Notes: generated by a model not told the origin, from the letters alone. Numbered from the stretch's first letter, positions 1,208 through 35,630 are shown. The stretch: 64,000 bases of DNA from a virus (IMGVR_UViG_3300031555_002005), one strand, 5' to 3'. Program-made: numbers and translations.

Positions 1208-2467
1208 ATGGATATTCTATTGAAGAAGTTCTTTGAAAAAGAACGATGGGAACAGGCACTTGAAACTGGTGTAGATAAGCACATTGACAAGGGAGAATTG
1301 AGAAAGCTTACATCTCCCGAAGTTAGACTTGCTTTGTATAGTGCAATTGTTAACGACAACTATGAGATTGCCCCGCCACATCAAGTACAGATTCCCAAAG
1401 ATAACGGAGACATGAGAATTGTATATGTCAATGAAAATGTTGACCGTATCTTCTTGTCTATTGTGAACAATCTTTTCTTTGAAATGTTCCCTGAGTTTGT
1501 GCATAAAAGCTGTAAGTCATATCAGTCTGGTATTGGCTGTGGCAAGATTGTACAGGAAGTTTCAAGAGAGATGGTTAAGGTAAACAGCAAGATTGTTGGC
1601 TTTAAGGCAGATTTAACTAAATACTTTGATACTGTTCCTATTAAGTACATAGATGAAATCTTTGACAGAATGGAAAGCAAAGTTGGTAAGTCCAAAATCA
1701 TTGATGTTGTGCGCAAGTATTATCATGCTGATTTATGCTTTGACTACAACGGAGAGCTTATTGAACATTATCAGTCTTTAAAGCAAGGTTGTGCAGTAGC
1801 AAGCTTCTTGGCTGATGCAGTGCTCTATCCAATCGATAAGGAAATCAGTGACATGGATGTTTACTATGTAAGATATTCTGATGATTTGCTTGTAGTTGGT
1901 AGGTGTTACGATGAAGCTTTTCAGATTTTAAAGGCAATGCTGAAAGAGATGGACATGACTTTGAATCCCAAGAAAGTAGAAACTGTTTGCAAAGACAGAT
2001 GGGTTAAATTCCTTGGTTTTAATATCAAAGGAAGCCAGATTACGCTTTCCAAGCAGCGTGTTAAGTCTTTCCAAAAGGAGATTGAAGCACGAACTATTAA
2101 GCAGCGCAAAACTTCTATGGAAAGAGCCATCAACCAAGTGAATAACTATCTCTATAAAGGAGATGGAACTTATTCTTGGGCGACATCTGTGTTACCTATT
2201 ATCAATGTAGAAAAAGACATTGATTCTTTGAATGAATTTGTCATGGATGCAATCAGAGCGTGTGCTACTGGTAAGAAAAAGATTGGAGGTCTGGGAAGTG
2301 TAAACAGCAAAGAAGACTATACAATTCTGCGTGGCACTGGCAAGAATGTGAGCGCAAACAGAGACAAGACTGAAAAGGAAATTGACGGTTTCCTAAGCTT
2401 AAGGTGCATGAGAAACGCTATTCTTACAAACCGAAGTGTATATGAGACTTTGGTAAGAAGTATGTAA
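1208..2467 (+). CDS. reverse transcriptase, stand-alone (class unassigned)
   Basis: 419 aa; RT motifs RIVYV, ADLTKYFDTV, LKQGCAVASF, YVRYSDDLLVV (YxDD), LNPKKVE, FLGF; no En/maturase domain seen. Confidence 0.9.
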   Translation: MDILLKKFFEKERWEQALETGVDKHIDKGELRKLTSPEVRLALYSAIVNDNYEIAPPHQVQIPKDNGDMRIVYVNENVDRIFLSIVNNLFFEMFPEFVHKSCKSYQSGIGCGKIVQEVSREMVKVNSKIVGFKADLTKYFDTVPIKYIDEIFDRMESKVGKSKIIDVVRKYYHADLCFDYNGELIEHYQSLKQGCAVASFLADAVLYPIDKEISDMDVYYVRYSDDLLVVGRCYDEAFQILKAMLKEMDMTLNPKKVETVCKDRWVKFLGFNIKGSQITLSKQRVKSFQKEIEARTIKQRKTSMERAINQVNNYLYKGDGTYSWATSVLPIINVEKDIDSLNEFVMDAIRACATGKKKIGGLGSVNSKEDYTILRGTGKNVSANRDKTEKEIDGFLSLRCMRNAILTNRSVYETLVRSM

Positions 2468-8625: not shown

Positions 8626-9044
8626 TGAGCGAAAGAGAGAATTTTATTGTCGTCAATGGTCAAAAATATTATACCGGAACTGTTTTTCTGATTGATTTTC
8701 ATGGTAAGGTACAAGAGGCATCTTTTGTCTGCACTGTTGTCAAGACAAATAGAGTTCGATGTAAACTTGCTAACTCTTACTGGTTTATACATGCTGACGA
8801 TTTTCGCAAAAGAATTGTTGAGATCACAGATAAGGTTGATTCCAGTGTGCACATGCCCGTTACCAAAACAATGAAAGACACTGAGATTGGCAGCCTGTTT
8901 ATTGGCTGGCTGTGGTATATTTTTCTTATGGCAATTAGCACGATTTTTAAAAATGCAATTGGACTGTGGTGTTTTATTTCTTGGGTGTTTTTTACTTGGA
9001 GAGCTAAGAAAATAAAAGAGGAGGGGACTTACATTGAGTGGTAG
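8625..9044 (+). CDS. membrane-anchored hypothetical protein
   Basis: ATG overlaps stop (TAATG), RBS GGAGGA; C-terminal hydrophobic helices. Confidence 0.7.
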   Translation: MSERENFIVVNGQKYYTGTVFLIDFHGKVQEASFVCTVVKTNRVRCKLANSYWFIHADDFRKRIVEITDKVDSSVHMPVTKTMKDTEIGSLFIGWLWYIFLMAISTIFKNAIGLWCFISWVFFTWRAKKIKEEGTYIEW

Positions 9045-10008
9045 ACTTGAAAAAGAAAGACAAATCGAACAGCAGGTCATGAAAAAACTTGACTCTATGC
9101 CTTCTATCTTAACAGACTATTATTATAGTTTAATTGGTGCAGGCAAATCATATAGAACTGCAAAAGTATATATAGAAAATGTAATTCAGTTTGTAAAATT
9201 TACATTTGGAAAAAATATTAAAGAAGACTTTTATTCTAGTGTGAACGCAATCCATATCAATAGATATATTGCTTCTCTGAGAACAAAGACTGTAAAAGGA
9301 AAAACGGAGCGCACATCTGATAGTCACAAAACATTAAATTGGTCTTCTTTAAATTCGTTTTTTCAATTCTTGGTTCCAGATTATATTTCCACAAACCCTG
9401 TGGCAAATACAAAAAGACCCAAAATGAAAGATAATCCAAATGTTACATTCTTGGACACGGAAGAAATGGCAAAAATCTTTAAAAATGTTAAAGAAAAAGC
9501 GAATCCACGAATGTTAAATAGAGATATGTGCCTTTTAAAACTTGGGTTTGCTACGGGCTTACGTATTTCTGCAATAGTACAAATTGATATTGATGATTTA
9601 GATTTAAAACGTAATCAAATCAGAATTACAGAAAAGGGAGATCATGACGATTATGTGATTATAGGAGATAATCTTAAAGCGCAAGTTGAACTGTGGCTAA
9701 AAGACAGAGAGGAATATTTTAGTGATGTAAACAGTAATGCTCTGTTTGTTTCGCAAGAAAAGAATAGACTTAGCGCACGATCTGTTAAGGATTTAATGGA
9801 TAAATATACACTTGGCGCAACTGATAAAAAGGTTACACCTCATGTAATGCGTCACTCTTGTGCGACAAATTTGTATGAAAAAACTGGAGATATTTATCTG
9901 TGTGCAAGACAGTTACATCATAAAAATGTATCTACAACACAGAGATATGCTGAGCTGTCTAAAGAGAAACAGAAAAAGGCGGCGAATATTCTTGATGACA
10001 TGATTTGA
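9034..10008 (+). CDS. int: tyrosine recombinase / phage integrase
   Basis: GLRISAI, HVMRHSCATNLY, TTQRYAE (R..HxxR..Y catalytic set); TTG start after GAGGAGGGG. Confidence 0.88.
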   Translation: MSGRLEKERQIEQQVMKKLDSMPSILTDYYYSLIGAGKSYRTAKVYIENVIQFVKFTFGKNIKEDFYSSVNAIHINRYIASLRTKTVKGKTERTSDSHKTLNWSSLNSFFQFLVPDYISTNPVANTKRPKMKDNPNVTFLDTEEMAKIFKNVKEKANPRMLNRDMCLLKLGFATGLRISAIVQIDIDDLDLKRNQIRITEKGDHDDYVIIGDNLKAQVELWLKDREEYFSDVNSNALFVSQEKNRLSARSVKDLMDKYTLGATDKKVTPHVMRHSCATNLYEKTGDIYLCARQLHHKNVSTTQRYAELSKEKQKKAANILDDMI

Positions 10009-10038
10009 CAAGAATATGATTATTCCAACAATTACAAA

Positions 10039-10067
10039 TTGACAAACACGTGTTCGCAATGTATAAT
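10039..10067 (+). promoter_or_regulatory. sigma70-type promoter
   Basis: TTGACA-N17-TATAAT (TG-extended). Confidence 0.75.
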
Positions 10068-10090
10068 ATTCCACGAAGGGGTGGCAAACA

Positions 10091-11005
10091 ATGTATCAAT
10101 CTGAAATGAAAGAGGGTTTTATAAAAGACTATATGAGATCAAGGGTGGTTGCTCGAACGTCTTTATATAGTTTATTCAGAAAAACAGAACCATTTGAAGA
10201 AGAGAATAAAAAGGATTGCAGTCAGTTCAATCAAGATGAAGCTTTATCTATGTACACAAAATTTAAAGCAAAATCAATTTATGTGCTTCTTAATTATAAT
10301 ACAATTTTAAAAGCTTATTGTGCATGGAGACACTATTACCATAAAGAAAAAGTTACGGACTCATATGACAATACTACTATAGAATTACTGAAACCATGTG
10401 TCCCAGAAGATAGTAATAAGTTTTTATCAAGAGAAGAAATAATAGAAATAGAAGATCAATTATATAATTGGACCGACAAGGCAATTGTAGAGTGTTTATG
10501 GGAAGGTATTTCTGGACCAAGTATGATTGACTTGGTGAATATCAATAGATCTATGGTCGATTTTAAGGAAAAGGAAATGTACTTTTCAGACGGAAGAATA
10601 ATTGAATTAACTGATAGGTTATGTGAGCTTTTAAACAAGACATTTGATGAAATTGAGTATATGTGCTACGGAGAATCATTAAGAGTTAAAAAGCTTGTTG
10701 GAATTGGCAATCTATACAAAGAAAGAGATAATGCGCATGCAACAGATTCAAATGATAAATATTTCAGATGGGTGTATAGGAAAGTACAAAATTTTAGAGA
10801 TCATGTTGGTATCCCCGGACTAACCATGAAAAATATACACATATCTGGTATGTATCATTATTTGTGTCAAGGGATGCAAGAAACTGGGCTTGACCTGAAA
10901 AGCTTCTTGAAATCTCAAGATGGTGCGGAATTGGCTTGTAAATATGGTTTTCATTCAGATAGTTACGTAGATAATTTAACACACCGCTTTAAAGATTTTG
11001 TTTAA
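10091..11005 (+). CDS. hypothetical protein (304 aa), possibly integrase-associated DNA-binding
   Basis: RBS GAAGGGG; function guess only from position next to int. Confidence 0.75.
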   Translation: MYQSEMKEGFIKDYMRSRVVARTSLYSLFRKTEPFEEENKKDCSQFNQDEALSMYTKFKAKSIYVLLNYNTILKAYCAWRHYYHKEKVTDSYDNTTIELLKPCVPEDSNKFLSREEIIEIEDQLYNWTDKAIVECLWEGISGPSMIDLVNINRSMVDFKEKEMYFSDGRIIELTDRLCELLNKTFDEIEYMCYGESLRVKKLVGIGNLYKERDNAHATDSNDKYFRWVYRKVQNFRDHVGIPGLTMKNIHISGMYHYLCQGMQETGLDLKSFLKSQDGAELACKYGFHSDSYVDNLTHRFKDFV

Positions 11006-12071: not shown

Positions 12072-12944
12072 ATGGAGGAAATTAATAATGGCGTTTTAAC
12101 AATACAAAAAATTTCAAATGAAAAACAAAATTGGTGTGTTTATTTACATACAAACAAAATAAATGGGAAGAAATATGTTGGTATCACTGGCCAAAATCCA
12201 GAAGATAGATGGAGAAGAGATGGTAAAGGATACAGAACTCAAAAGTATTTTTGGAGAGCAATTCAGAAATATGGATGGAACAACTTTAAACATGAAGTTG
12301 TTTTATATAACGAAACTTTTAAATACGCATGTGCCGTAGAAAAATGTTTAATAAAGCATTATAAATCTAATGATCCAAGGTATGGTTATAATCTTACTGA
12401 TGGTGGCGAAGGCGTTTCTGGTAGAACTCCATGGAATTATGGAATACCAATGTCTGACGAAATGAAAGAAATAATACGGAAAGCAAATACTGGGAGAAAA
12501 ATATCCGAAGAAACACGTAAAAAATTAATTAATGCAAAAAAGGGTAAGCCTCCCAATAACGCAGGGCGTCCAATGTCAGACGAAACAAAAAGAAAATTGT
12601 CAATGTCGCTTATTGGACGAGTGTTTGATGATGAGACAAAACAAAAAATTAGCAATTCCAAAAAAGGAAAATACACAGGCGTAGATAGCTCTAGACATCA
12701 CCCAATTTATTGCGTTGAATTAAATGAAATTTTTTGGGGTGCAAAGGCTGTGAAAGATAAGTATGGTTTTACCACATGTAATATTGGAGCATGTTGTAGA
12801 GGAGAGCGAAATTATGCCAATAAACATCCAGACACCGGAGAGAAGCTTCATTGGATCTATTGTGATGATGCAATAAAAAATGGATATATTACATCATTTC
12901 AACTTGATAATTACTATAAAGGATTAATGGACAAAGGAGATTAA
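12072..12944 (+). CDS. GIY-YIG homing endonuclease with NUMOD-like repeats
   Basis: WCVYLHTN..KKYVGIT..RW..GYNLTDGGEG; three repeats of M/ISDETKxKL. Confidence 0.85.
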   Translation: MEEINNGVLTIQKISNEKQNWCVYLHTNKINGKKYVGITGQNPEDRWRRDGKGYRTQKYFWRAIQKYGWNNFKHEVVLYNETFKYACAVEKCLIKHYKSNDPRYGYNLTDGGEGVSGRTPWNYGIPMSDEMKEIIRKANTGRKISEETRKKLINAKKGKPPNNAGRPMSDETKRKLSMSLIGRVFDDETKQKISNSKKGKYTGVDSSRHHPIYCVELNEIFWGAKAVKDKYGFTTCNIGACCRGERNYANKHPDTGEKLHWIYCDDAIKNGYITSFQLDNYYKGLMDKGD

Positions 12945-17547: not shown

Positions 17548-18603
17548 TTGGAACAAATCAATAATAATTGGTGTGTTTATATGCACACCAATATCATAAA
17601 TAATAAAAAATATATTGGAATTACGTGCAAGAAGCCAGAACATAGGTGGAATGAAGGCAAAGGATATAAACATAATAGATATTTTTGGAATGCAATTCAA
17701 AAATATGGTTGGGAAAATTTTAAACATGAAATTGTTTCATTTAACCTCTCTCACGATGATGCTTGTAAAATGGAAAAATATTTAATCGCTTATTATAGCT
17801 CGAATAATTCGATATATGGTTATAATCTTACAAGTGGTGGAGATAGTGGGTTTTTACATACTGAAGAAACAAAAGAGAGAATAAGACAAGCTAATAGTGG
17901 TATAAGCAATGCAATGTACGGTATTTCTCCAAAAGAACGAATGGATGAAGATACGTACAAACAATGGCTTTATAAGCAACAGACAAATAAACCACACGGT
18001 GAAGATAATCCACAATATGGTGTATCTCCAAAAGAGAGAATGGATGAAACAACATACCAAGAATGGTTGTACAAACAGAAAAATAACAAGCCAAAAGGGA
18101 AAGACCATCCTATGTATGGAGTGTCGCCACAGGAGCGAATGGACGAAGATACATACAAAAATTGGTTGGAAAAAATGAAAAATCCAGCCAAAAGCATATC
18201 TGTTAAGTGCATTGAAACAGATAAAATATATAAAAGTGCAAGAGAAGCAGAAAGAGAAACAGGAATTGCACACAGTTCAATTGTGAAGTCTTGTATGTCA
18301 GAAGATCATTCGGTAATTGCTGGCGGATTTCATTGGTGTTTGGGCAGCGATAATTTTTCTATGGAGGATCTTGGCTTAGAATATAAAGGTAAGAGGTACA
18401 TTAGGTGCATAGAGACTAATCGTATTTATAAAACAGCCAGAGAAGTTAAGAGAGAAACAGGTTTGGATGACTCATCCATTAACAAATGTTGCAAGGGATA
18501 TTATTTCAAAACAGTTGGTGGCCTTCATTGGGAATATATTTATTTGCTTCCAGAACAATACGAAGAATGGTGCAAAACCAACAACTTAACAACACAAAAT
18601 TAA
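17548..18603 (+). CDS. GIY-YIG homing endonuclease with repeats
   Basis: WCVYMHTN..KKYIGIT..RW..GYNLTSGG; three repeats YGxSPKERMDExTY. Confidence 0.85.
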   Translation: MEQINNNWCVYMHTNIINNKKYIGITCKKPEHRWNEGKGYKHNRYFWNAIQKYGWENFKHEIVSFNLSHDDACKMEKYLIAYYSSNNSIYGYNLTSGGDSGFLHTEETKERIRQANSGISNAMYGISPKERMDEDTYKQWLYKQQTNKPHGEDNPQYGVSPKERMDETTYQEWLYKQKNNKPKGKDHPMYGVSPQERMDEDTYKNWLEKMKNPAKSISVKCIETDKIYKSAREAERETGIAHSSIVKSCMSEDHSVIAGGFHWCLGSDNFSMEDLGLEYKGKRYIRCIETNRIYKTAREVKRETGLDDSSINKCCKGYYFKTVGGLHWEYIYLLPEQYEEWCKTNNLTTQN

Positions 18604-19726: not shown

Positions 19727-20254
19727 ATGAACCTAACAAAAGTAAGTAAATATATTAGTTTAATTTTGCGCCATAAGCCAGAAACAATTGGCATCAGCCT
19801 TGATGAGCATGGCTGGGCCAATGTAAAGGATCTTATTGATGGCGTAAATAAAACTCACAAGCTAGATATGAAAATGCTTGAAGAGATTGTAGCAACAGAT
19901 GATAAGCAGCGCTATTCTTTCAATGAAGATAAGACTATGATTCGTGCCAATCAGGGGCATTCTATTGATGTAGACGTGGAACTTGAAGAAGCTGTGCCTC
20001 CTGAGATGCTTTGGCATGGAACTGGTGTTAAATACATGAAGAGCATTGATACAGAGGGGCTTATTCCTAAGTCCAGATTGTATGTGCATTTGTCTACTGA
20101 TCCTAATACGGCAATGGAGGTCGGTAAGAGACATGGTGCACCTATGATTTACTGCATTGATGCGCTAAGAATGCATGAAGATGGATATAAGTTTTACAAA
20201 TCCAAGAACGGTGTGTGGTTAACTAAACATGTGCCTGCGGAGTATTTTAGGTAA
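19727..20254 (+). CDS. kptA: RNA 2'-phosphotransferase Tpt1/KptA
   Basis: Near full-length collinearity with KptA as I recall it: LRHKPE..GI.LD..GWA, FNED..IRANQGHS, WHGT, YVHLS, NGVWLT. Confidence 0.9.
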   Translation: MNLTKVSKYISLILRHKPETIGISLDEHGWANVKDLIDGVNKTHKLDMKMLEEIVATDDKQRYSFNEDKTMIRANQGHSIDVDVELEEAVPPEMLWHGTGVKYMKSIDTEGLIPKSRLYVHLSTDPNTAMEVGKRHGAPMIYCIDALRMHEDGYKFYKSKNGVWLTKHVPAEYFR

Positions 20255-20714: not shown

Positions 20715-21509
20715 ATGCCCAAATTTTTTGTAAGTTCTGATATTCATAGTGCATATACTCCGTGGATGAAGGCATTAAAAGAAGCGGGTTTTGATGAAAA
20801 CAATCCTAGTCACAAAATTGTCGTATGCGGAGATTTGTTCGATAGACTGGATGAATCTATTCAGGTGTACGATTTTGTTAAGGACATGCTTGAAAAAGAT
20901 AAGTTAATTTACGTAAAAGGAAATCACGAAAGTCTAATGGAAGAATGCCTTGAAAGAGGATACCCTGGAAGGCATGATTGGTCAAATGGTACGGCAAAAT
21001 CTATTATTGACCTCGTTCCCCATGCAGAGAATTTTTATGATGGTTGCGCCGTCGTACGTGAAAAAATGAAATCTTTGTGGGGCAAGACTGTCAATTATTT
21101 TGAGACTAAGAATTATATTTTTGTACATGGCTGGATCCCGGTTATTTGCAAGGATAATTTGCCTAGCTATTATACTAGAAATAGAAAGTTTGAATTTAAC
21201 CCAGAGTGGCGTCATGCGCACTTTTCTGAGTGGGAACAGGCTAGATGGTTAAACGGTATGGATATGGCCAGAAAAGGCTTTGTGGAGCCTGAGAAGACTA
21301 TTGTATGCGGACACTGGCATTGCAGCTATGGTCATATGATGGATGATATGGCTAAGAATGGCCCATTTGATTGTATTGATGAATTTGGAGAAACTGCAAT
21401 TTGGGAACCTTATTATGGAAATGGTATAATTGCAATTGATCGCTGCACTGCACATACTGGAGAGGTTAATGTTCTTGTCATTGAGGATGAACTGTTGGAG
21501 GAATTATGA
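20715..21509 (+). CDS. calcineurin-like metallophosphoesterase
   Basis: SDIHS, GDLFDR, GNHE, GHWH motifs. Confidence 0.85.
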   Translation: MPKFFVSSDIHSAYTPWMKALKEAGFDENNPSHKIVVCGDLFDRLDESIQVYDFVKDMLEKDKLIYVKGNHESLMEECLERGYPGRHDWSNGTAKSIIDLVPHAENFYDGCAVVREKMKSLWGKTVNYFETKNYIFVHGWIPVICKDNLPSYYTRNRKFEFNPEWRHAHFSEWEQARWLNGMDMARKGFVEPEKTIVCGHWHCSYGHMMDDMAKNGPFDCIDEFGETAIWEPYYGNGIIAIDRCTAHTGEVNVLVIEDELLEEL

Positions 21510-22857: not shown

Positions 22858-22983
22858 GACGGTGTAGCTCAGTTGGAAGAGCAATAGCCTTTGTCAGATG
22901 CAGGCTTGCACTAATTCAGTTCGATTCTGAAGTTTGGCACCATAAGCTATGGGTCGAGAGTTCGAGCCTCTCCACCGTCACCA
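22858..22983 (+). tRNA. interrupted tRNA: Lys(TTT) after removal of 50-nt nested insert (alternative register Gln TTG)
   Basis: acceptor gacggtg/caccgtc, D arm, anticodon stem atagc/gctat enclosing cttt+50 nt+taa, T arm gagag-ttcgagc-ctctc, CCA. Confidence 0.75.
22893..22942 (+). ncRNA. nested mini tRNA-like element (acceptor + T arm + ACCA)
   Basis: gtcagat/gtttggc 7-bp helix (3 G-U), ttcag-ttcgatt-ctgaa T arm, ends ACCA. Confidence 0.6.
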
Positions 22984-23450: not shown

Positions 23451-23604
23451 ATCCCAGTAGCTCAGCTGGATAGAGCAACGGTCTTCGGGGAGTTCGTTAA
23501 AAGGTAAGATACTTTAGGATAAAACCTAAGGAGATTACAGTTCGAGTCTGTTGCTCCCCACCATAAACCGTAGGTCGGGGGTTCGAGTCCCTCCTGGGAT
23601 ACCA
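23451..23604 (+). tRNA. interrupted tRNA: Arg(TCT) after removal of 77-nt nested insert (alternative register Arg TCG)
   Basis: acceptor atcccag/ctgggat, anticodon stem acggt/accgt enclosing cttc+77 nt+taa, T arm ggggg-ttcgagt-ccctc, CCA. Confidence 0.75.
23487..23563 (+). ncRNA. nested full-length tRNA-like element with 6-nt 'anticodon' loop
   Basis: ggggagt/gctcccc acceptor, tttagg-ataaaa-cctaag arm, acag-ttcgagt-ctgt T arm, ends ACCA. Confidence 0.6.
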
Positions 23605-23610
23605 AAATAT

Positions 23611-23745
23611 CGGGAACAGGTGGAATGGTATACACATCGGAACCATAACTGAGTTTTGATAAAAACTTGCCAACAGCAAATACGTGGACGTAAAATCCGA
23701 CGCTTTTGCAAGCATCCTTGGTTCGAATCCAAGGGTTCCCGACCA
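23611..23745 (+). tRNA. tRNA-like gene with ACAGCAA-module insert in anticodon-arm position (anticodon uncertain, possibly CAT)
   Basis: acceptor cgggaac/gttcccg, T arm ccttg-gttcgaatc-caagg, CCA; stem tcgga/tccga encloses hairpin agtttt-gata-aaaact + ACAGCAA (23673..23679). Confidence 0.55.
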
Positions 23746-25214: not shown

Positions 25215-25700
25215 ATGAATATTGAACAAGTAATTCTTTATAAAAGAATCGAAAAAGTACTTAAGAATTACCTAATAAATGACTTGGGTGATTCACAAAT
25301 GAAGAAAAAGGAAAGCTATTGTTTGAATTGTGGAGTTTCTATACCAAATAGAAATAAATATTGCTCAAACAAATGCCAACTAGATTTCCAATATAAAGAG
25401 TATATACAGAGATGGAAAAATGGGCTTGAAGATGGTATGAGAGGTGAATATCTTATATCAGTACACATTAGAAAATATTTAATGGAAAAGTTTGATAACA
25501 AATGCTCAAAATGTGGATGGGGAGAAATAAATCCTTATACCAAAAATGTACCACTAGAAGTCCATCATAAAGATGGAGATTATACCAATAATTCAGAAGA
25601 CAATCTTGACTTACTATGTCCAAATTGTCACTCATTAACAGAAACATATAAAGCTGCAAATAAAGGCAATGGAAGAAAAGATCGTAAAAAATACACATAA
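25215..25700 (+). CDS. HNH homing endonuclease
   Basis: EVHHKDGDYTNN..LDLLCPNCHSL; start may be internal ATG 25299. Confidence 0.85.
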   Translation: MNIEQVILYKRIEKVLKNYLINDLGDSQMKKKESYCLNCGVSIPNRNKYCSNKCQLDFQYKEYIQRWKNGLEDGMRGEYLISVHIRKYLMEKFDNKCSKCGWGEINPYTKNVPLEVHHKDGDYTNNSEDNLDLLCPNCHSLTETYKAANKGNGRKDRKKYT

Positions 25701-25777: not shown

Positions 25778-25914
25778 TATTAAAAGCACAAGTGGATAAG
25801 TACTTTATAGTCAACTGACTAGTCATGTCACGAAAGGTAAGACGAGTTTGCACAAAAATGGCCATGGACATTTAGTGATGAATCCGCAAATCTACGAAAC
25901 GGAGGATATTGCCT

Positions 25915-25962
25915 ATGATTGTTTGTAGTGAATCCAGTGTGGGGGACACCCCACCCGCTTAG
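25915..25962 (+). CDS. conserved 15-codon uORF, copy 1 (MIVCSESSVGDTPPA)
   Basis: GGAGGA 7 nt upstream; TAG stop sits in loop of hairpin cccac/gtggg; paralog at 30959. Confidence 0.4.
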   Translation: MIVCSESSVGDTPPA

Positions 25963-26017
25963 TAGTGGGTTTCGCCGTTCCCACCAAAAACGGCGAACTT
26001 AATTAAGAGGTAATAAA

Positions 26018-26200
26018 ATGTGTAAACACCAAAACGGAAGTATATCAAGTATGTTTGGCATTCCAGTAGATCCTTGTGTGTACAAGGATATTGAAGCATA
26101 CAAGAATGTAACAGTAATTGTTAGCAAATGTATTCACTGTGGTGCTATTAATATCAGTTGGAAGCGTCAGGAAGATACTGAAGAAATTGAAGTTGAGTAA
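26018..26200 (+). CDS. zinc-ribbon small protein (60 aa)
   Basis: RBS AGAGG; Cys pairs. Confidence 0.6.
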   Translation: MCKHQNGSISSMFGIPVDPCVYKDIEAYKNVTVIVSKCIHCGAINISWKRQEDTEEIEVE

Positions 26201-26208
26201 TTAAATAT

Positions 26209-26299
26209 GGGGAATTGGCCGAGTGGTCGAAGGCAGCTGACTTGAAATCAGTAGACGGTGCTGAGCCGTCCGTGGGTTCGAATCCTACATTCCCCGCCA
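26209..26299 (+). tRNA. tRNA-Ser (TGA), class II
   Basis: acceptor ggggaat/attcccc, loop ctTGAaa, long variable arm, G73, CCA. Confidence 0.9.
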
Positions 26300-26344
26300 C
26301 AAAATGGGCTTACGGCTTCACCCAACCAAAGAAGCCGACGATAT

Positions 26345-26436
26345 GGAGCAGTACCCAAGTGGCTATAAGGGGACGCCCTGCTAAGGCGTTAGACCGAGCA
26401 ATCGGTGCGAGAGTTCGAATCTCTCCTGCTCCGCCA
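26345..26436 (+). tRNA. tRNA-Ser (GCT), class II
   Basis: acceptor ggagcag/ctgctcc, loop ctGCTaa, long variable arm, CCA. Confidence 0.9.
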
Positions 26437-27064
26437 TGCACTCAAGGGCACTACAGATGTTACCGATATTAGAAAACTCATATCGCCCTCGTAAATACTA
26501 AGAATGGTGCGAAGTATTTACACAAATCTCACGCAACACTACTTATTGCAGTAAGTTGATTGAATAAAGGTGTTGCTTATATAGGGGAGTCGTTCAAAGG
26601 AAGGACTGTAGTCTCCAAAACTACCAATGGGATATCGTGATTCTCCTCCCCTGCCAAGTAAGTGATACTTAAATACTGCAGAATAAAGGATTTGCCTTCC
26701 AGGGAACTGTGCCTGCATAGATCCCGTTTACTGGTGTTGATGCCAAAGTACACGGTGCAGTAGCCAGCTGATAAAGCCAACAACAAAGATTGGCCGCTTG
26801 TTTCGTGCGGCATATAAAAGTGAAACTCGCTAGTCACAGTGTGAACCTGAAAAAGATGCTTCGTCAAAAGCTTAAAATGGCATCGCTCTTCAATAATTGG
26901 CGGTTGTTGGAAATCTAAAGAAAGGAAATTATGTATCATGTGGAAGACTTTTAAAAAGAGACTTTTTGATGCTATTGTTGAATACGGTAAGTTTGTTCAG
27001 TTTATGTATTCCTAATAGCGTTATTAAGTGGATCATTGAGCCTAAAAAGCTTAATGATTCCCTC
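26437..27064 (+). ncRNA. 628-nt ORF-free structured region; large ncRNA candidate
   Basis: No supported + strand ORF; helices gcaacac/gtgttgc, ggggag/ctcccc and many local hairpins; flanked by tRNAs. Confidence 0.4.
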
Positions 27065-27093
27065 TTGACAAATCTTAAAACATGTGATATAAT
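27065..27093 (+). promoter_or_regulatory. sigma70-type promoter (conserved cassette)
   Basis: cctcTTGACAaat-N17-TATAAT. Confidence 0.8.
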
Positions 27094-27110
27094 TCCTTCA
27101 GTTCAAAGGA

Positions 27111-27127
27111 ACAATACAAAATTAATA
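27111..27127 (+). promoter_or_regulatory. ACAATACAAAATTAAT box copy
   Basis: acaatacaaaattaata, 2 nt before a tRNA 5' end. Confidence 0.6.
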
Positions 27128-27128
27128 T

Positions 27129-27216
27129 TGGGGATTCGCCTAGAGGCTAAGGGCGGCGGGCTTTGACCCCGTTTGGAGAAATCCTATCGTGTGTTCGAAT
27201 CACACATCCCCAACCA
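27129..27216 (+). tRNA. class II-shaped tRNA with Gln anticodon TTG
   Basis: acceptor tggggat/atcccca, loop ctTTGac, 16-nt variable arm (gga-gaaa-tcc), A73, CCA. Confidence 0.7.
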
Positions 27217-27219
27217 TAT

Positions 27220-27296
27220 AGAGCCGTAGCCAAGCGGTTAAGGCATCAGACTCTGACTCTGACATTTCATTGGTTCAAATCCAATCGGCTCTACCA
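27220..27296 (+). tRNA. tRNA-Gln (CTG)
   Basis: acceptor agagccg/cggctct, loop ctCTGac, CCA. Confidence 0.88.
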
Positions 27297-27322
27297 TTAT
27301 TTATTTGACATTAAAGAAGTGA

Positions 27323-27922
27323 TTGACATTGGCGAAACATGTAACTACAGAAGAAATAGCAACAAGAATAAAAAATACTTTTAAACAAAATGTTTCATTA
27401 GTTGGAGAATATAAGAATAAACGATCAAAATTAACATTACATTGTAATGATTGTGGACATGAATGGGAATCTCCATCAAGTAGTGTTATATATGGAGATA
27501 GACACGAGTGTCCTCGGTGTGGAAGACATGCAAAACAATTGAATGAATTTCAATGTACAAACTGTGGACAAGTTGTGTATCGTAAAGATTCAGACATTAA
27601 AAAGAATCAAACAGGTAATTTCTTTTGTTCTCAACAATGTGGAAATGAGTTTAAAAATCGAATACGAAAAGAAAGTGGAGAATGGGATAACTCGTTAAGC
27701 TATAGACGGAAAGCATTTGAAACTTATGAACATTTATGTTGTGTATGCGGTTGGAATGAAGATGAAAGAATTTTAGAAGTTCATCATAAAGATGAAGATC
27801 GTACAAACAATATGGTAAATAATCTATGTATTCTATGTCCTACATGTCATAGAAAAATAACATTAGGATATTATGAATTAACAGATGATTTCAAGCTAGT
27901 TGATAAAAATCAAAAGAATTAA
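27323..27922 (+). CDS. HNH homing endonuclease with zinc ribbons
   Basis: EVHHKDEDRTNN..CILCPTCHRKI; several CxxC pairs. Confidence 0.85.
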   Translation: MTLAKHVTTEEIATRIKNTFKQNVSLVGEYKNKRSKLTLHCNDCGHEWESPSSSVIYGDRHECPRCGRHAKQLNEFQCTNCGQVVYRKDSDIKKNQTGNFFCSQQCGNEFKNRIRKESGEWDNSLSYRRKAFETYEHLCCVCGWNEDERILEVHHKDEDRTNNMVNNLCILCPTCHRKITLGYYELTDDFKLVDKNQKN

Positions 27923-28561: not shown

Positions 28562-28582
28562 AAAATCCCACTAACTTAATAT

Positions 28583-28712
28583 GCGGAAGTAGCTCAGCTG
28601 GGAGAGCAATAGTATTTATTTAAAAATGTGTTTAGATTAACACTAACAGCAATTTTTATTTAAAGAAGAAGTTGGGGACTATGGGTCGTAGGTTCGAGCC
28701 CTACCTTCCGCA
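28583..28712 (+). tRNA. tRNA-like gene with permuted ACAGCAA module in anticodon loop (unit D; anticodon unassigned)
   Basis: acceptor gcggaag/cttccgc, D and T arms canonical, stem atagt/actat encloses 64 nt: taaaaa-[gtgtt-tagatt-aacac]-tAACAGCAA-ttttta. Confidence 0.6.
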
Positions 28713-28724
28713 TCAACTAAATAT

Positions 28725-28852
28725 GCCAGAGTAGCTCAGTTGGTAGAGCACGTATATATCAACCAACGTGGTATGAAAATTTCACGCACAGCAATTTTAA
28801 TGATTCTTGCCTTTTAAGCACGTTGTCGTGGGTTCGAGTCCCATCTCTGGCA
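28725..28852 (+). tRNA. tRNA-like gene with ACAGCAA module (unit E; anticodon unassigned)
   Basis: acceptor gccagag/ctctggc, D/T arms canonical; insert has hairpin cgtg-N12-cacg + cACAGCAA (28788..28794); flanked by direct repeat agcacgt. Confidence 0.55.
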
Positions 28853-28862
28853 AACTTTATAT

Positions 28863-28981
28863 GGCGCAATGGTGTAATGGTAGCACAACGTAATAATTGA
28901 GGTTTGTTAAAATCTTAAACTGCAATTTTACAATGCATGATCACGCCGTAGGTTGAAGTTCGATTCTTCATTGCGTCTCCA
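28863..28981 (+). tRNA. tRNA-like gene with variant module ACTGCAA (unit F; anticodon unassigned)
   Basis: acceptor ggcgcaa/ttgcgtc, T arm tgaag-ttcgatt-cttca, CCA; hairpin gttt-N11-aaac + TGCAATTTTA. Confidence 0.5.
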
Positions 28982-29353: not shown

Positions 29354-30907
29354 ATGGAATTTATGAGTGCAGTTAGACAGACTCTCAATAATGAGTACAA
29401 TGTGTCTATCACTGAGAACGGCGCAGTTGGTTATAGAACCACTGGCAAGGAGCTGCTTGACCTGAACTTTGCAGTAGCATCTCTTCGTAAGATGACCGAT
29501 GCAGAAGTCGCAAAGAGATTCAAGAAGGCTTTTTGTGAAGATCAGGTTCTCGCAATGAAGTGGCTGTTCTACGCAAGAGACGTTCGTGGTGGTTTGGGTG
29601 AGCGTAGACTGTTCAGAGTTGTTCTGGCAGATCTGGTACAGTCCAATCCTGAAATGGTTATTCCTGTCATGAATCTGATTCCTGAGTATGGTCGCTACGA
29701 TGACCTGTGGTGTCTGTTAGATGACAAGGAAGCAGCTAATGTGATTTATCAGATTGTTGATAATCAGCTGAAGCGTGACTGGGAAAACATGGCTTCAAAG
29801 AAGCCTATTTCTATTCTGGCAAAGTGGATGCCTTCTATCAATGCATCTTCTGCTAAGACCAAGGAATACGGAAAGAAGCTGTGCAAGGCTCTGAAGATGA
29901 CTGAGCGTGAATACCGCAAGGCTCTGAGCAAGCTTCGTGCATATCTGGATGTTGTTGAAGTTAAGATGTCCGATAAGAACTGGTCTGCAATTAAGTATGA
30001 AGCAGTTCCTTCTCGTGCAAATCTGATTTACAACAGCGCATTCCTGAGAAATGACGAAGCAAGACGTAGAGAATATCTTGGCCAGCTTGAAAAGGGCGAG
30101 ACTAAGATTAACGCATCTACTCTGTTCCCTCACGATATTGCTCATAAGTATACTAACAACTCATGGGGTCGTGGTCTAAAGGCAAAGGATGCAACCATTG
30201 AAGCTCTGTGGAAGGCGCTACCTGACACTGTAAATGGCTGTGGTAATACTATTGTTGTTGCTGACGGCTCTGGTAGTATGACTTGCACTGTTGACAATCA
30301 CTCTCGTGTTACTGCACTTGAAGTTGCAAACGCACTGGCAATTTACTTTGCTGAGCACTCTTCTGGTCAGTTCAAGGATAAGTACATTACTTTCTCTGAA
30401 AGACCTCAGTTTGTTGACTTCAGCAATTGTAAGACTCTGCATGACAAGCTACACACTGCACTAATGCATAATGAAGTTGCAAATACTAACATCGAAAAGG
30501 TGTTTGATTTGATTCTGACTTCTGCGGTCAATAACCATATGCATCAGGAAGATCTTCCTCAGAACATCCTGATCATCTCTGATATGGAGTTTGATAGCTG
30601 TGCAACTTCTGGCAATGTTGATCGTTGGAGCTACCGTAACAGACCTACTCAGAAGCTATTCGATGTTATCGCTCAGAAGTACGCAAGAGCAGGTTACAAG
30701 ATGCCTCGTCTGGTATTCTGGAATGTAAACTCTCGCACTGGTACTATTCCTGTAAAGGAAAATGACCTTGGTGTGGCACTGGTCAGCGGTTTCTCTGTAA
30801 ACGTTGCCAAGATGGTCATGAGTGGCAAGACTGATCCTTTCGAGTGTCTGCTTGAAACTCTGAACTCTGAGAGATATGCTCCTGTTGAGGAAGCTTTAAA
30901 TCAGTAA
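29354..30907 (+). CDS. DUF2828 / TROVE(Ro60)-like protein with C-terminal vWA domain
   Basis: N-terminal ITENGAVGYRTTGKELLDLNF signature as I recall for DUF2828; MIDAS-like VVADGSGSM; strong RBS AGGAGG. Confidence 0.75.
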   Translation: MEFMSAVRQTLNNEYNVSITENGAVGYRTTGKELLDLNFAVASLRKMTDAEVAKRFKKAFCEDQVLAMKWLFYARDVRGGLGERRLFRVVLADLVQSNPEMVIPVMNLIPEYGRYDDLWCLLDDKEAANVIYQIVDNQLKRDWENMASKKPISILAKWMPSINASSAKTKEYGKKLCKALKMTEREYRKALSKLRAYLDVVEVKMSDKNWSAIKYEAVPSRANLIYNSAFLRNDEARRREYLGQLEKGETKINASTLFPHDIAHKYTNNSWGRGLKAKDATIEALWKALPDTVNGCGNTIVVADGSGSMTCTVDNHSRVTALEVANALAIYFAEHSSGQFKDKYITFSERPQFVDFSNCKTLHDKLHTALMHNEVANTNIEKVFDLILTSAVNNHMHQEDLPQNILIISDMEFDSCATSGNVDRWSYRNRPTQKLFDVIAQKYARAGYKMPRLVFWNVNSRTGTIPVKENDLGVALVSGFSVNVAKMVMSGKTDPFECLLETLNSERYAPVEEALNQ

Positions 30908-30958
30908 ACTGGTACACGCAAGTGTCTTGTTTAAATAATCCAAAGGAGGACTTTGCCT

Positions 30959-31006
30959 ATGATTGTATCAGCTAATTCCAACTTGGAGGATTGTCCACCA
31001 GCTTAG
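30959..31006 (+). CDS. conserved 15-codon uORF, copy 2 (MIVSANSNLEDCPPA)
   Basis: GGAGGActTTGCCTATGATTGT shared with copy 1; TAG in loop of hairpin tccacc/ggtgga. Confidence 0.4.
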   Translation: MIVSANSNLEDCPPA

Positions 31007-31041
31007 GTGGAGTCCTGGGTAAGACTTAAAACTGCCCATTC

Positions 31042-34474: not shown

Positions 34475-34502
34475 TTGACAAAATGGTAAAATGTGTTATA
34501 AT
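34475..34502 (+). promoter_or_regulatory. sigma70-type promoter
   Basis: TTGACA-N16-TATAAT; box starts 2 nt after -10. Confidence 0.8.
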
Positions 34503-34503
34503 A

Positions 34504-34520
34504 ACAATACAAATTTAATG
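34504..34520 (+). promoter_or_regulatory. ACAATACAAAATTAAT box copy (variant)
   Basis: acaatacaaatttaatg. Confidence 0.55.
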
Positions 34521-34535
34521 AAGGGAGTATACATA

Positions 34536-35630
34536 GTGACATATCTTGACTACGCTGCCACAACGCCAATATGTGATGCAGCACAGCAAACAATAATTAA
34601 GTATTTAAATTACTTTGGCAACCCATCAAGTTCTCATGAGTTTGGAAGACAATCCAGACTGTTAATCGAAGATGCACGTGAAAGAATTGCCCAATGTATC
34701 AACGCAGATCCTAGTGAAATTTACTTCACGTCTGGAGGTTCTGAAGCAAATACACTTGCGTTAAACAATAGGAGATATTCAGCGTCTTCAAAATTTGAGC
34801 ATCATTCTGTGGTGTCAAATTGGCCAAAAATTTCTATTACAAAAGATGGATTTATCAAGGTACATAAACTAAATAATATGATCTCAGAATGGTGGGAGGT
34901 TCCATTTGATGTTATGTCTTGCATGTATGTGAACAATGAAATTGGAACAATACAGCCAGTAAAAGAGCTATCTACTGTAGCGCATAGATATGGTATTTTA
35001 CTTCACACTGACGCAGTTCAGGCAATGCCTTATGTACACATAGACGTTAAAGATTTGGGTTGCGATATGTTATCTGCAAGTGGGCATAAGTTTGGTGCAC
35101 CAAAAGGCATAGGATTTTTATATGCAAATTCTCGTTCAAGAATCAAGCCGATCATTAATGGAGGCAAGCAAGAAAACTCTATGCGCCCAGGTACTGAAAA
35201 TATTTTAGGCATTCTGGCCATGGCTTCGGCGCTTGAAGACGCTGTGGAACATATGGATGAACGTAATGAGCGCATTAAATCTTTAAGAGACAGTCTGCTT
35301 GATAAGTTACTTAAAATTGATGGAGCGCATCTTAATGGCTCACTTGAAAATCGCATTCCAGGCAACATCAATATCAGATTTGATGGGGTTTACGGTTCAA
35401 GACTAGTTACATTGTGCAGTTTATATGGAGTTTATATTTCCGCAGGATCTGCATGCAACGAAGGCACCACTGAGCCAAGCCACGTGCTTAAAGCAATTAA
35501 TCTATCAGACGAAGAAGCATTAAGTAGCGTAAGAATTACTTTGGGGCATCAAACTACCGAAGAAGATGTTAACATAGCAGCAGATATTATTACAGCACTA
35601 GTTAAAAGGATTCGTTCAGATGAATCTTAA
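34536..35630 (+). CDS. cysteine desulfurase (NifS/IscS-like, class V aminotransferase)
   Basis: GTG start giving MTYLDYAATTP; PLP lysine SGHKFGAPKG; active-site SAGSACNEG. Confidence 0.88.
   Translation: MTYLDYAATTPICDAAQQTIIKYLNYFGNPSSSHEFGRQSRLLIEDARERIAQCINADPSEIYFTSGGSEANTLALNNRRYSASSKFEHHSVVSNWPKISITKDGFIKVHKLNNMISEWWEVPFDVMSCMYVNNEIGTIQPVKELSTVAHRYGILLHTDAVQAMPYVHIDVKDLGCDMLSASGHKFGAPKGIGFLYANSRSRIKPIINGGKQENSMRPGTENILGILAMASALEDAVEHMDERNERIKSLRDSLLDKLLKIDGAHLNGSLENRIPGNINIRFDGVYGSRLVTLCSLYGVYISAGSACNEGTTEPSHVLKAINLSDEEALSSVRITLGHQTTEEDVNIAADIITALVKRIRSDES

Follow-up and report, generated by a model that had tools for sequence, protein, structure and literature searches.

The 64,000-nucleotide (nt) phage sequence IMGVR_UViG_3300031555_002005, referred to here in its full length as the window, carries an island of transfer RNA (tRNA) genes in which a gap of 628 nt separates tRNA-Ser(GCU) from the promoter of the group that starts with tRNA-Gln. 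This gap is probably (at about three chances in four) a chain of independent small modules within the phage tRNA operon, and not one RNA. The modules include a hairpin motif (a1), an unannotated gene for tRNA-Trp(CCA), a small structured RNA (c) preceded by a spacer hairpin, a leader-like element (e) and a 25-codon open reading frame (ORF). A preliminary description had taken the region to be a candidate large non-coding RNA; most of it is indeed structured, conserved non-coding RNA, part of which is new to Rfam, but it does not form a single molecule. The contig derives from a large phage with Firmicutes-type promoters and coding DNA of about 30% GC, and its tRNA island extends from approximately 22.7 to 34 kb, with 21 tRNA genes according to ARAGORN and 22 according to Rfam.

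The modular organisation is seen when the region is compared with related loci obtained from scans of IMG/VR and of metagenomes (contigs with L numbers). In L001, found by an exact-pattern scan of IMG/VR, only 26524–26656 (95% identity) and an upstream block at 25889–25996 (94%) stand out against flanks of 69–77% identity. The core of that upstream block was used to retrieve ten further loci, which were then compared with the region by blastn. The block 26524–26580 is common to L062, L064, L067 and L069, 26583–26652 to L001 only, 26653–26791 to L065 and L067 (it is shared by L072 as well), and 26892–26928 to L065. Side by side, the intervals between tRNA-Ser and tRNA-Gln carry different combinations of blocks in different relatives, and in L067 one block sits in another tRNA interval altogether, between tRNA-Asp and tRNA-Gly. 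Relatives retrieved through a highly conserved DUF2828 protein show yet other combinations, and L061, which is syntenic via a metallophosphatase, has none of the modules within 10 kb. As the blocks are separate and reordered, and since one of them is a tRNA and the 3′ end is coding, the region is better described as a cluster of small elements than as a large ornate RNA.

Several of the features that had pointed to a single structured RNA of about 500–630 nt, of the GOLLD or ROOL type or of a new class, were nevertheless described correctly. The bounds of the gap are right, with tRNA-Ser(GCU) ending at 26436 and a perfect promoter beginning at 27065, as is the local GC enrichment (0.42–0.46 over 26400–26900, compared to about 0.28–0.34 in the flanking coding DNA). 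The region is poor in ORFs and lies beside phage tRNAs, so that it shares with GOLLD, ROOL and HEARO RNAs a phage context, adjacency to tRNAs and a non-coding nature. The claim that it is highly structured holds for individual modules, which show covariation, but the folding energy of the full 628 nt is weak, with minimum free energy z-scores of −2.8 on the plus strand and −2.3 on the minus strand (20 shuffles each). Rfam 15 was searched with the whole window at the gathering score, and with 26200–27300, 26437–26700, 26578–26662 and 26655–26775 at E ≤ 10; no family matched the region as a unit in either search, the GOLLD, ROOL, HEARO, group I intron, tmRNA and RNase P models were all without a match at E ≤ 10, and ARAGORN found no tmRNA. 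Kinship with GOLLD or ROOL is further contradicted by the way conservation is split into units of 59–134 nt that stand alone or rearranged in relatives, one of them a tRNA and another a conserved coding micro-ORF. Alignment with related phages, proposed earlier as a check, uncovered covariation inside the separate modules but no helix joining blocks in any relative. The three helices cited as long-range or nested all exist as RNA helices, but each is local (at most 74 nt): hairpin a1 accounts for gcaacac/gtgttgc (its outer stem) and actta/taagt (its inner stem), both with compensatory changes in relatives, and ggggag/ctcccc is a tRNA acceptor stem (AGGGGAG/CUCCCCU). The idea of one large RNA is largely refuted already, and scarcely any likelihood is left to it.

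Coding potential was also examined. The 120-amino acid (aa) minus-strand ORF, rightly suspected of being spurious, has a best PHROG match of E = 0.16 and is interrupted by stop codons in relatives with the same blocks, where the longest open stretch is 31–76 aa; no ORF inside the region has a significant PHROG match. On the plus strand, however, the statement that no ORF with a ribosome binding site (RBS) is present was mistaken, as AAAGAAAGGAAA precedes a 25-codon ORF that is supported by homology (see below). When 26300–27200 was compared by blastn with 50,697 records of isolated phages, tRNA-Ser was the sole match, so that none of these phages has the region.

The first conserved module, a1, stands after tRNA-Ser. 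It consists of an outer stem (26533–26540/26569–26576, GCAACACU/GGUGUUGC) and an inner stem (26541–26545/26552–26556, ACUUA/UAAGU), between which lies an invariant 12-nt internal loop on the 3′ side, UGAYUGAAUAAA. In an alignment of five distinct versions (window, L001, L064 = L067, L062 = L069, and L072), both partners have changed in 5 of the 15 predicted pairs; L099 has a sixth version, partly degraded, that was left out of the alignment. The 3′ neighbour of a1 varies, being tRNA-Trp in the window, L001 and L072, an RBS in L064 and L067, and a further module (d) in L062, L069 and L099. A search of the window for sequences complementary to the invariant loop, as possible targets in trans, gave matches at chance level only. 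The sequence can also be read as a promoter (TTGATT-16-TATATA), a reading that was rejected since the −10 element is not conserved, the tRNA starts 1–2 nt later and the stems covary.

Module d is a conserved non-coding sequence of about 270 nt and higher GC that is absent from the window. In relatives it lies between a1 and tRNA-Gln or tRNA-Trp (L001, 4700–4330, minus strand; L062, 3390–3080, minus strand; L069; and in part L099, 5130–5205).

Immediately downstream of a1 is a sequence that folds into a cloverleaf: AGGGGAG UC GUUC AAAGGAA GGAC U GUAGU CUCCAAA ACUAC CAAU GGGAU AUCGUGA UUCUC CUCCCCU G CCA. It has acceptor, D, anticodon and T stems of 7, 4, 5 and 5 bp, in which 20 of 21 pairs are standard, together with U8, GG in the D loop, a 4-nt variable loop, and a 7-nt anticodon loop, CUCCAAA, with U33 and a purine at position 37. 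The identity elements of bacterial tRNA-Trp are the anticodon CCA, the discriminator base G73 and the A1–U72 pair, and all three can be read in this sequence. The deviation lies in the T arm, GGGAU-AUCGUGA-UUCUC, which fails the canonical pattern (G53–C61, U54, U55, C56, R57, A58) by having U53•U61, A54 and U58; U55, C56 and G57 are canonical. When 26578–26662 was searched alone, Rfam returned a tRNA match (RF00005, 33.8 bits against a gathering score of 29, E = 3.8e-6) over the full length of the model, covering 26583–26653, but in searches with larger stretches the match was dropped by the speed filters. ARAGORN never called this gene, even with thresholds lowered to 70%, and relaxed runs yielded only implausible calls. 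The T-arm deviations (U53•U61, and AUCGUGA in place of UUCRANY) explain why the gene is missed by such programs. ARAGORN and Rfam found no further tRNA-Trp in the window.

Comparison with relatives is consistent with a genuine gene. Canonical tRNA-Trp(CCA) genes occupy the same slot, between tRNA-Ser(GCU) and tRNA-Gln, in L072, L099, L100, L105 and L106. The L099 gene has the same acceptor and D arms as the window copy, and relative to the L072 gene, which ARAGORN does call, seven pairs differ and six of these are changed on both sides. The copy in L001 is identical at 74 of 74 positions, while the adjacent a1 differs at six positions and the flanks do not align, suggesting that the variant T arm is maintained by selection and is not a sign of decay. 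Judged by its sequence, this is probably a functional but atypical tRNA-Trp(CCA) gene, and its variant T arm may change how the tRNA is recognised by some factor of the host or the phage. When IMG/VR was scanned for exact matches to the tRNA-Trp block, L001 alone was found, and the corresponding metagenome scan found none. Two other patterns were discarded: a 15-mer from the block gave 60 matches that were dismissed as chance, and the variant T arm, sought in genomes, had a single match, also due to chance, within a GC-rich protein gene of a Clostridia metagenome-assembled genome.

The next module, c, is a 93-nt RNA predicted to form a four-way junction. Its 5′ and 3′ ends pair to form a 6-bp helix (P1), which is followed by three hairpins: a short one (AAGG-AUUWG-CCUU), one with a covarying stem of 9–11 bp and a CYUG tetraloop, and one that is irregular and invariant in sequence (GUUUACUGGUGUNGAUGCC...GUAC). 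The 3′ tail consists of an invariant NCCA, then GC. Copies were collected from IMG/VR and from metagenome contigs, including human-gut assemblies, and the covariance model (R1) matched 19 distinct full-length copies and one truncated copy at 95–116 bits. Within the alignment 97.4% of cells are paired, compared to 28–54% when partners are slid. Seven pairs are changed on both sides, six of them in the long hairpin, and the covariation score of 0.229 was reached by none of 500 shuffles (0.126 ± 0.012). P1 alternates between U-A and C-G in a ratio of 9:8, and conserved G•U pairs fix the strand. c had no Rfam match at E ≤ 0.1 (mir-144, E = 0.4, and PVT1_3, E = 4.4, are at chance level), and its pattern was absent from species-representative bacterial and archaeal genomes. 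The covariation is sufficient to propose c as a new small RNA family, one that appears well supported by the comparative data.

In all 19 copies c is preceded by an invariant spacer, RNNAAGUGANACUUAAW, directly after a tRNA-type CCA end, so that c always begins 17 nt after the CCA. The upstream tRNA is most often tRNA-Pro, but can be tRNA-Trp (window, L072), tRNA-Ser (L065, L086, L098) or tRNA-Asp (L067). At many loci the next tRNA begins about 10 nt after c, and with a CCA end upstream and a tRNA so close downstream, c can be said to occupy a tRNA slot. It is not itself a tRNA: there was no Rfam tRNA match at E ≤ 10, the central arm carries a tetraloop without T-loop sequence, and lacking both a 7-nt anticodon loop and a T loop it cannot decode. 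Our best guess is that c is a tRNA-like stable RNA that is processed along with the tRNAs. The spacer of the window (AAGTGANACTTAA) was also considered as a repeated promoter-like signal, which was rejected as it occurs only once in the window.

Small stable RNAs that are not tRNAs are known from the tRNA cluster of phage T4 (species 1 and 2, rnaC/rnaD), where they lie between the tRNA genes of a large lytic phage and arise from the same precursor transcripts. The likeness to c is one of description only. The hosts are unrelated (Escherichia coli versus an apparent Firmicutes host of the gut or rumen), and c is distinguished by its defined four-way junction and by a 3′ end, NCCA, that is invariant.

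Downstream of c is the leader e, found in five versions (window, L086, L098, L065 and L100), each of which lies just upstream of AAGAAAGGAA and an ATG. The ends of e are conserved, its interior is variable and rich in hairpins, and its 3′ end is about 10 nt before the RBS. The ORF that follows in the window has tblastn homologues in L086 (84% identity) and L096 (83%). The L086 peptide is MLKNFKKNLFNAIVEYGKFVQFMYS, and in its C-terminal half, which is identical to that of the window, four third-position changes are synonymous. The L072 counterpart (MWNKIKNYILEALSLYGQYIQHMCR) matches it in length and pattern. In other relatives e precedes an ORF of 77–80 aa that is absent from the window. A hairpin located after the micro-ORF recurs, with changed pairs, in L086 and L072, and in both of these contigs it is followed by a mini tRNA-like element of about 55 nt (L086, 1116–1175; L072, 1067–1126) made up of just an acceptor stem plus a canonical T arm (GUUCGAAUC). 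The promoter block 5′ of tRNA-Gln is also present in L062, L065, L098 and L099. The positions of all of these features, and of others mentioned below, are listed in Table 1.

Table 1. Features of the studied region and its surroundings (window coordinates).
Feature	Coordinates	Strand	Description and evidence
Region under study	26437–27064	+	Gap from the 3′ end of tRNA-Ser(GCU) (26436) to the promoter (27065)
Non-conserved spacer after tRNA-Ser(GCU)	26437–26523	+	No alignment to L001, L072, L064 or L062; no Rfam match
a1 hairpin motif	26524–26582	+	Conserved 5′ flank AAAUCUCAC; covarying stems
tRNA-Trp(CCA)	26583–26656	+	74 nt with encoded CCA; cloverleaf, Rfam tRNA match
Spacer hairpin	26657–26673	+	AAGU-GAU-ACUU, always 5′ of c
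c RNA	26674–26766	+	93-nt four-way junction; covariance model R1
e leader	26777–26910	+	Conserved ends; possible 8-bp closing helix CCAACAAC/GUUGUUGG
RBS	26917–26928	+	AAAGAAAGGAAA, 5′ of the 25-codon ORF
25-codon ORF	26938–27015	+	MWKTFKKRLFDAIVEYGKFVQFMYS, then stop codon; tblastn homologues
Hairpin after micro-ORF	27030–27061	+	Minimum free energy fold; no U tract; not reported by terminator scan
Promoter of tRNA-Gln-onward group	27065–27093	+	Sigma-70 type, TTGACA-17-TATAAT, 12/12 positions plus TG extension
b motif copies	25889–25996 (b), 30926–31040 (b′)		About 110 nt; conserved RNA motif family
Ro60-like protein	29354–30907	+	517 aa; DUF2828 + DUF7788 (Pfam); fold, profile
RNA-repair/tRNA-modification type genes	19727–20254, 20715–21509, 34491–35630		Flank the tRNA island

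A gene for a DUF2828 protein lies 2.6 kb downstream of c on the same strand. Pfam finds DUF2828 and DUF7788 in the encoded protein and no match to the TROVE domain, yet a profile of 73 diverse homologues has Ro60 as its best PDB match. A model made by AlphaFold with the homologue alignment has a mean predicted local distance difference test score (pLDDT) of 92.9 (a single-sequence model, with a pLDDT of 38, was not used), and its top five Foldseek matches in the PDB are all Ro60/TROVE structures that align along the entire protein, with 507–577 alignment columns, E values of 3e-7 to 2e-5 and template modelling (TM) scores of 0.40–0.59. Ro60 of Thermus phage phiLo is among the matches, and those that come after the top five are to vWA domains only. 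The MIDAS motif DGSGSM is conserved. By its modelled fold, the protein is Ro60-like, with a TROVE ring and a vWA/MIDAS domain. The protein is very abundant (more than 120 clusters at 83–100% identity, and 6955 representatives at E ≤ 1e-3), and a literature search on the domain returned nothing relevant.

The same part of the genome carries the two copies of a further RNA motif, b and b′. Copy b is upstream of tRNA-Ser genes and b′ is just before tRNA-Met. The family also occurs in L001, L062–L071, L086, L096–L101, L103 and L108, and its 18 distinct copies fall into two subfamilies. The core sequence, GGAGGAnnnUGCCUAUGAUUG, contains a Shine–Dalgarno-like sequence and an AUG, followed by about 15 codons (for example, MIVCSESSVGDTPPA) without a fixed stop codon; this stretch overlaps covarying hairpins, including GGAGG...CCUCC. 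Rfam has no family corresponding to b/b′, and gave only a weak partial match to wcaG RNA (E = 1.3). In the window and L097, and in L098, L099, L100/L101, L103 and L108, b′ begins 19 nt downstream of the Ro60-like stop codon.

The proximity of a Ro60-like gene raises the question of whether c is a Y-RNA-like partner of this protein, with the role of a tether or gate that mimics tRNA. In bacteria and phages, Y RNAs are encoded on the strand of the Ro60 gene, no more than 4 kb away from it, and have tRNA-like parts (PMC4201824); for one of them, cutting by RNase P and addition of CCA were described (Chen et al. 2014, PMC4201824). c is likewise small and structured, with paired ends and a Ro60-type gene nearby on the same strand, RNase P/CCA logic would be plausible for it, and DUF2828 homologues are present as well at the distant c-bearing loci L073 and L076. 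The linkage is inconsistent, however. The distance is 2 kb in L098 but 6.7–8.5 kb in L073 and L076, and no c is found within 6–8 kb of the Ro60-like gene in L099, L100, L103, L105 or L106. Moreover, the Ro-binding motif GNCGAAN0-1G is present in just 7 of 19 c copies, the site reading GCC[G/A][A/G][A/C/U]G, the mimicry of T and D arms known from YrlA is lacking, and no Rfam Y-RNA model matched. By position, b′ is a better candidate for such a partner, and a Y-RNA role for c is unlikely. Somewhat easier to entertain, although still improbable, is a function in cis, with c serving as a self-cleaving ribozyme or processing signal for the 3′ end of the upstream tRNA, or as a riboswitch-like leader of a downstream ORF. 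The fixed distance from the tRNA CCA and the invariant spacer would fit processing, and the many invariant nucleotides in the junctions and two hairpins resemble a ribozyme core, but no Rfam ribozyme or riboswitch matched c, and a pure processing signal would leave the invariant NCCA at its 3′ end unexplained. An RBS and ORF do follow c in the window, L086, L098, L065 and L072, but at eight or more loci c is directly followed by a tRNA gene, with no ORF, which speaks against a leader or riboswitch. The functions proposed for c can only be ranked, with a trans-acting tRNA-like RNA favoured, then a cis element or ribozyme, then a Ro60 Y-RNA-like partner.

A different objection is that the whole region may be decaying junk, left over from tRNA genes and from a protein gene since lost, and retained for spacing only. 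Phage tRNA islands do carry degenerate tRNAs (the tRNA-Ser(GCU) of L001 looks degraded), the 77–80-aa ORF of relatives is missing from the window, and the first 87 nt of the region are not conserved. Decay would not account for a1, tRNA-Trp and c being more conserved than neighbouring protein genes (95–100% versus 69–77% in L001), for their differences being concentrated in compensatory pairs, or for the retention of c in distant phages whose Ro60-like protein is only 28–37% identical, and this explanation is very unlikely. Certain observations do weigh against the interpretation of the region as a chain of functional modules. The deviant T arm of tRNA-Trp (U53•U61, A54, U58) might be detrimental to folding, to cutting by RNase P or to use by EF-Tu, and the variant was found in just two contigs. 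Helices 2, 4 and 5 of c never vary and, being invariant, are not proven. For most copies of c, retrieval relied on a 22-base pattern located in the invariant hairpin, which inflates the apparent conservation there. The linkers of c differ in length from those of tRNA, so that tRNA-like processing is not assured, and the structure of e is likewise not proven, as its closing helix shows no covariation. Finally, the anatomy, conservation and covariation of the modules are direct observations, while co-transcription and RNase P processing are only inferred from the sequence.

If the region is a chain of modules, its expression might proceed as follows. The whole stretch would be transcribed together with the upstream tRNAs, which is likely because a terminator scan of the window found no terminator-like sites between 24530 and 29791. 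RNase P would then cut on the 5′ side of the acceptor-type stems, trimming of the 3′ ends would proceed to the encoded CCA, and tRNA-Trp and c would be released as stable small RNAs; this release by tRNA enzymes is suggested by the acceptor-type stems and encoded CCA ends of both. c could subsequently bind a protein that handles tRNA ends; it might be a decoy or a regulator, or might partner the phage RNA-repair and Ro60-like proteins. It is possible, if doubtful at present, that c founds a new class of tRNA-slot RNAs of uncultivated gut and rumen phages, with CCA ends and RNase P processing, that act in trans on the tRNA-handling machinery. Such an RNA might be a decoy for host nucleases that attack anticodons or tRNA ends, or for CCA-adding or repair enzymes; alternatively, c and b/b′ together might partner the Ro60-like protein in the manner of Y RNAs, within a phage tRNA-maintenance module.

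The tRNA island and its surroundings show other unusual features. Some tRNA genes (22858–22983, 23451–23604, 23562–23745, 28582–28714, 28724–28853 and 28863–28981) carry inserts of 34–88 nt at or near the anticodon loop, giving Rfam matches of 123–151 nt, and are also reported by ARAGORN in intron mode. The inserts are too short to be group I introns, and one of these tRNAs reads as a stop suppressor with anticodon UUA. tRNA-Gln(UUG) at 27129–27216 spans 88 nt and, unusually for a tRNA of this type, bears a long extra arm. Among relatives with c or the Ro60-like gene, tRNAs of the suppressor type (anticodons CUA and UUA) are encoded by L073 (3673–3747, minus strand), L076 (4323–4397, minus strand), L105 (5193) and L106 (4633), a hint that some of these phages may have reassigned stop codons. 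The genes that flank the island encode a Tpt1/KptA RNA 2′-phosphotransferase, a calcineurin-like phosphoesterase that weakly resembles Pnkp, and a class-V aminotransferase of the cysteine desulfurase-like type; in L099 an RNA ligase is nearby as well. Free-standing homing-endonuclease genes (HNH, and GIY-YIG of the 'group I intron endonuclease' type) are found at 12072–12944, 17548–18603, 25215–25700 and 27323–27922, and in L073 and L087 an HNH gene lies between tRNA-Pro and c. Homing endonucleases in and around the island may drive the shuffling of modules. Elsewhere in the window are a reverse transcriptase gene (1208–2467, plus strand; Pfam RVT_1, E = 9e-22), tyrosine-recombinase-type genes (9034–11005), and a gene for a RecJ-like protein that is approximately 34–36% identical to RecJ-like proteins of SPbeta-like and Geobacillus phages.

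As kinds of molecule, tRNA-like RNAs and small RNAs encoded within phage tRNA clusters are familiar; the specific families are new to Rfam. The tRNA-Trp of this phage, with its deviant T arm, was invisible to ARAGORN and was lost to the Rfam speed filters in anything beyond short stretches, so that phage tRNA repertoires are possibly under-counted, at a time when atypical phage tRNAs are of interest for the evasion of host defences that target tRNAs. The tRNA islands of an abundant, uncultivated group of Firmicutes-type phages carry at least three structured motifs that are absent from Rfam (c, a1 and b/b′). Their location beside a Ro60-like protein, Tpt1 and a phosphoesterase leads to the testable idea that these phages may possess a tRNA/RNA quality-control module with small RNAs of its own.

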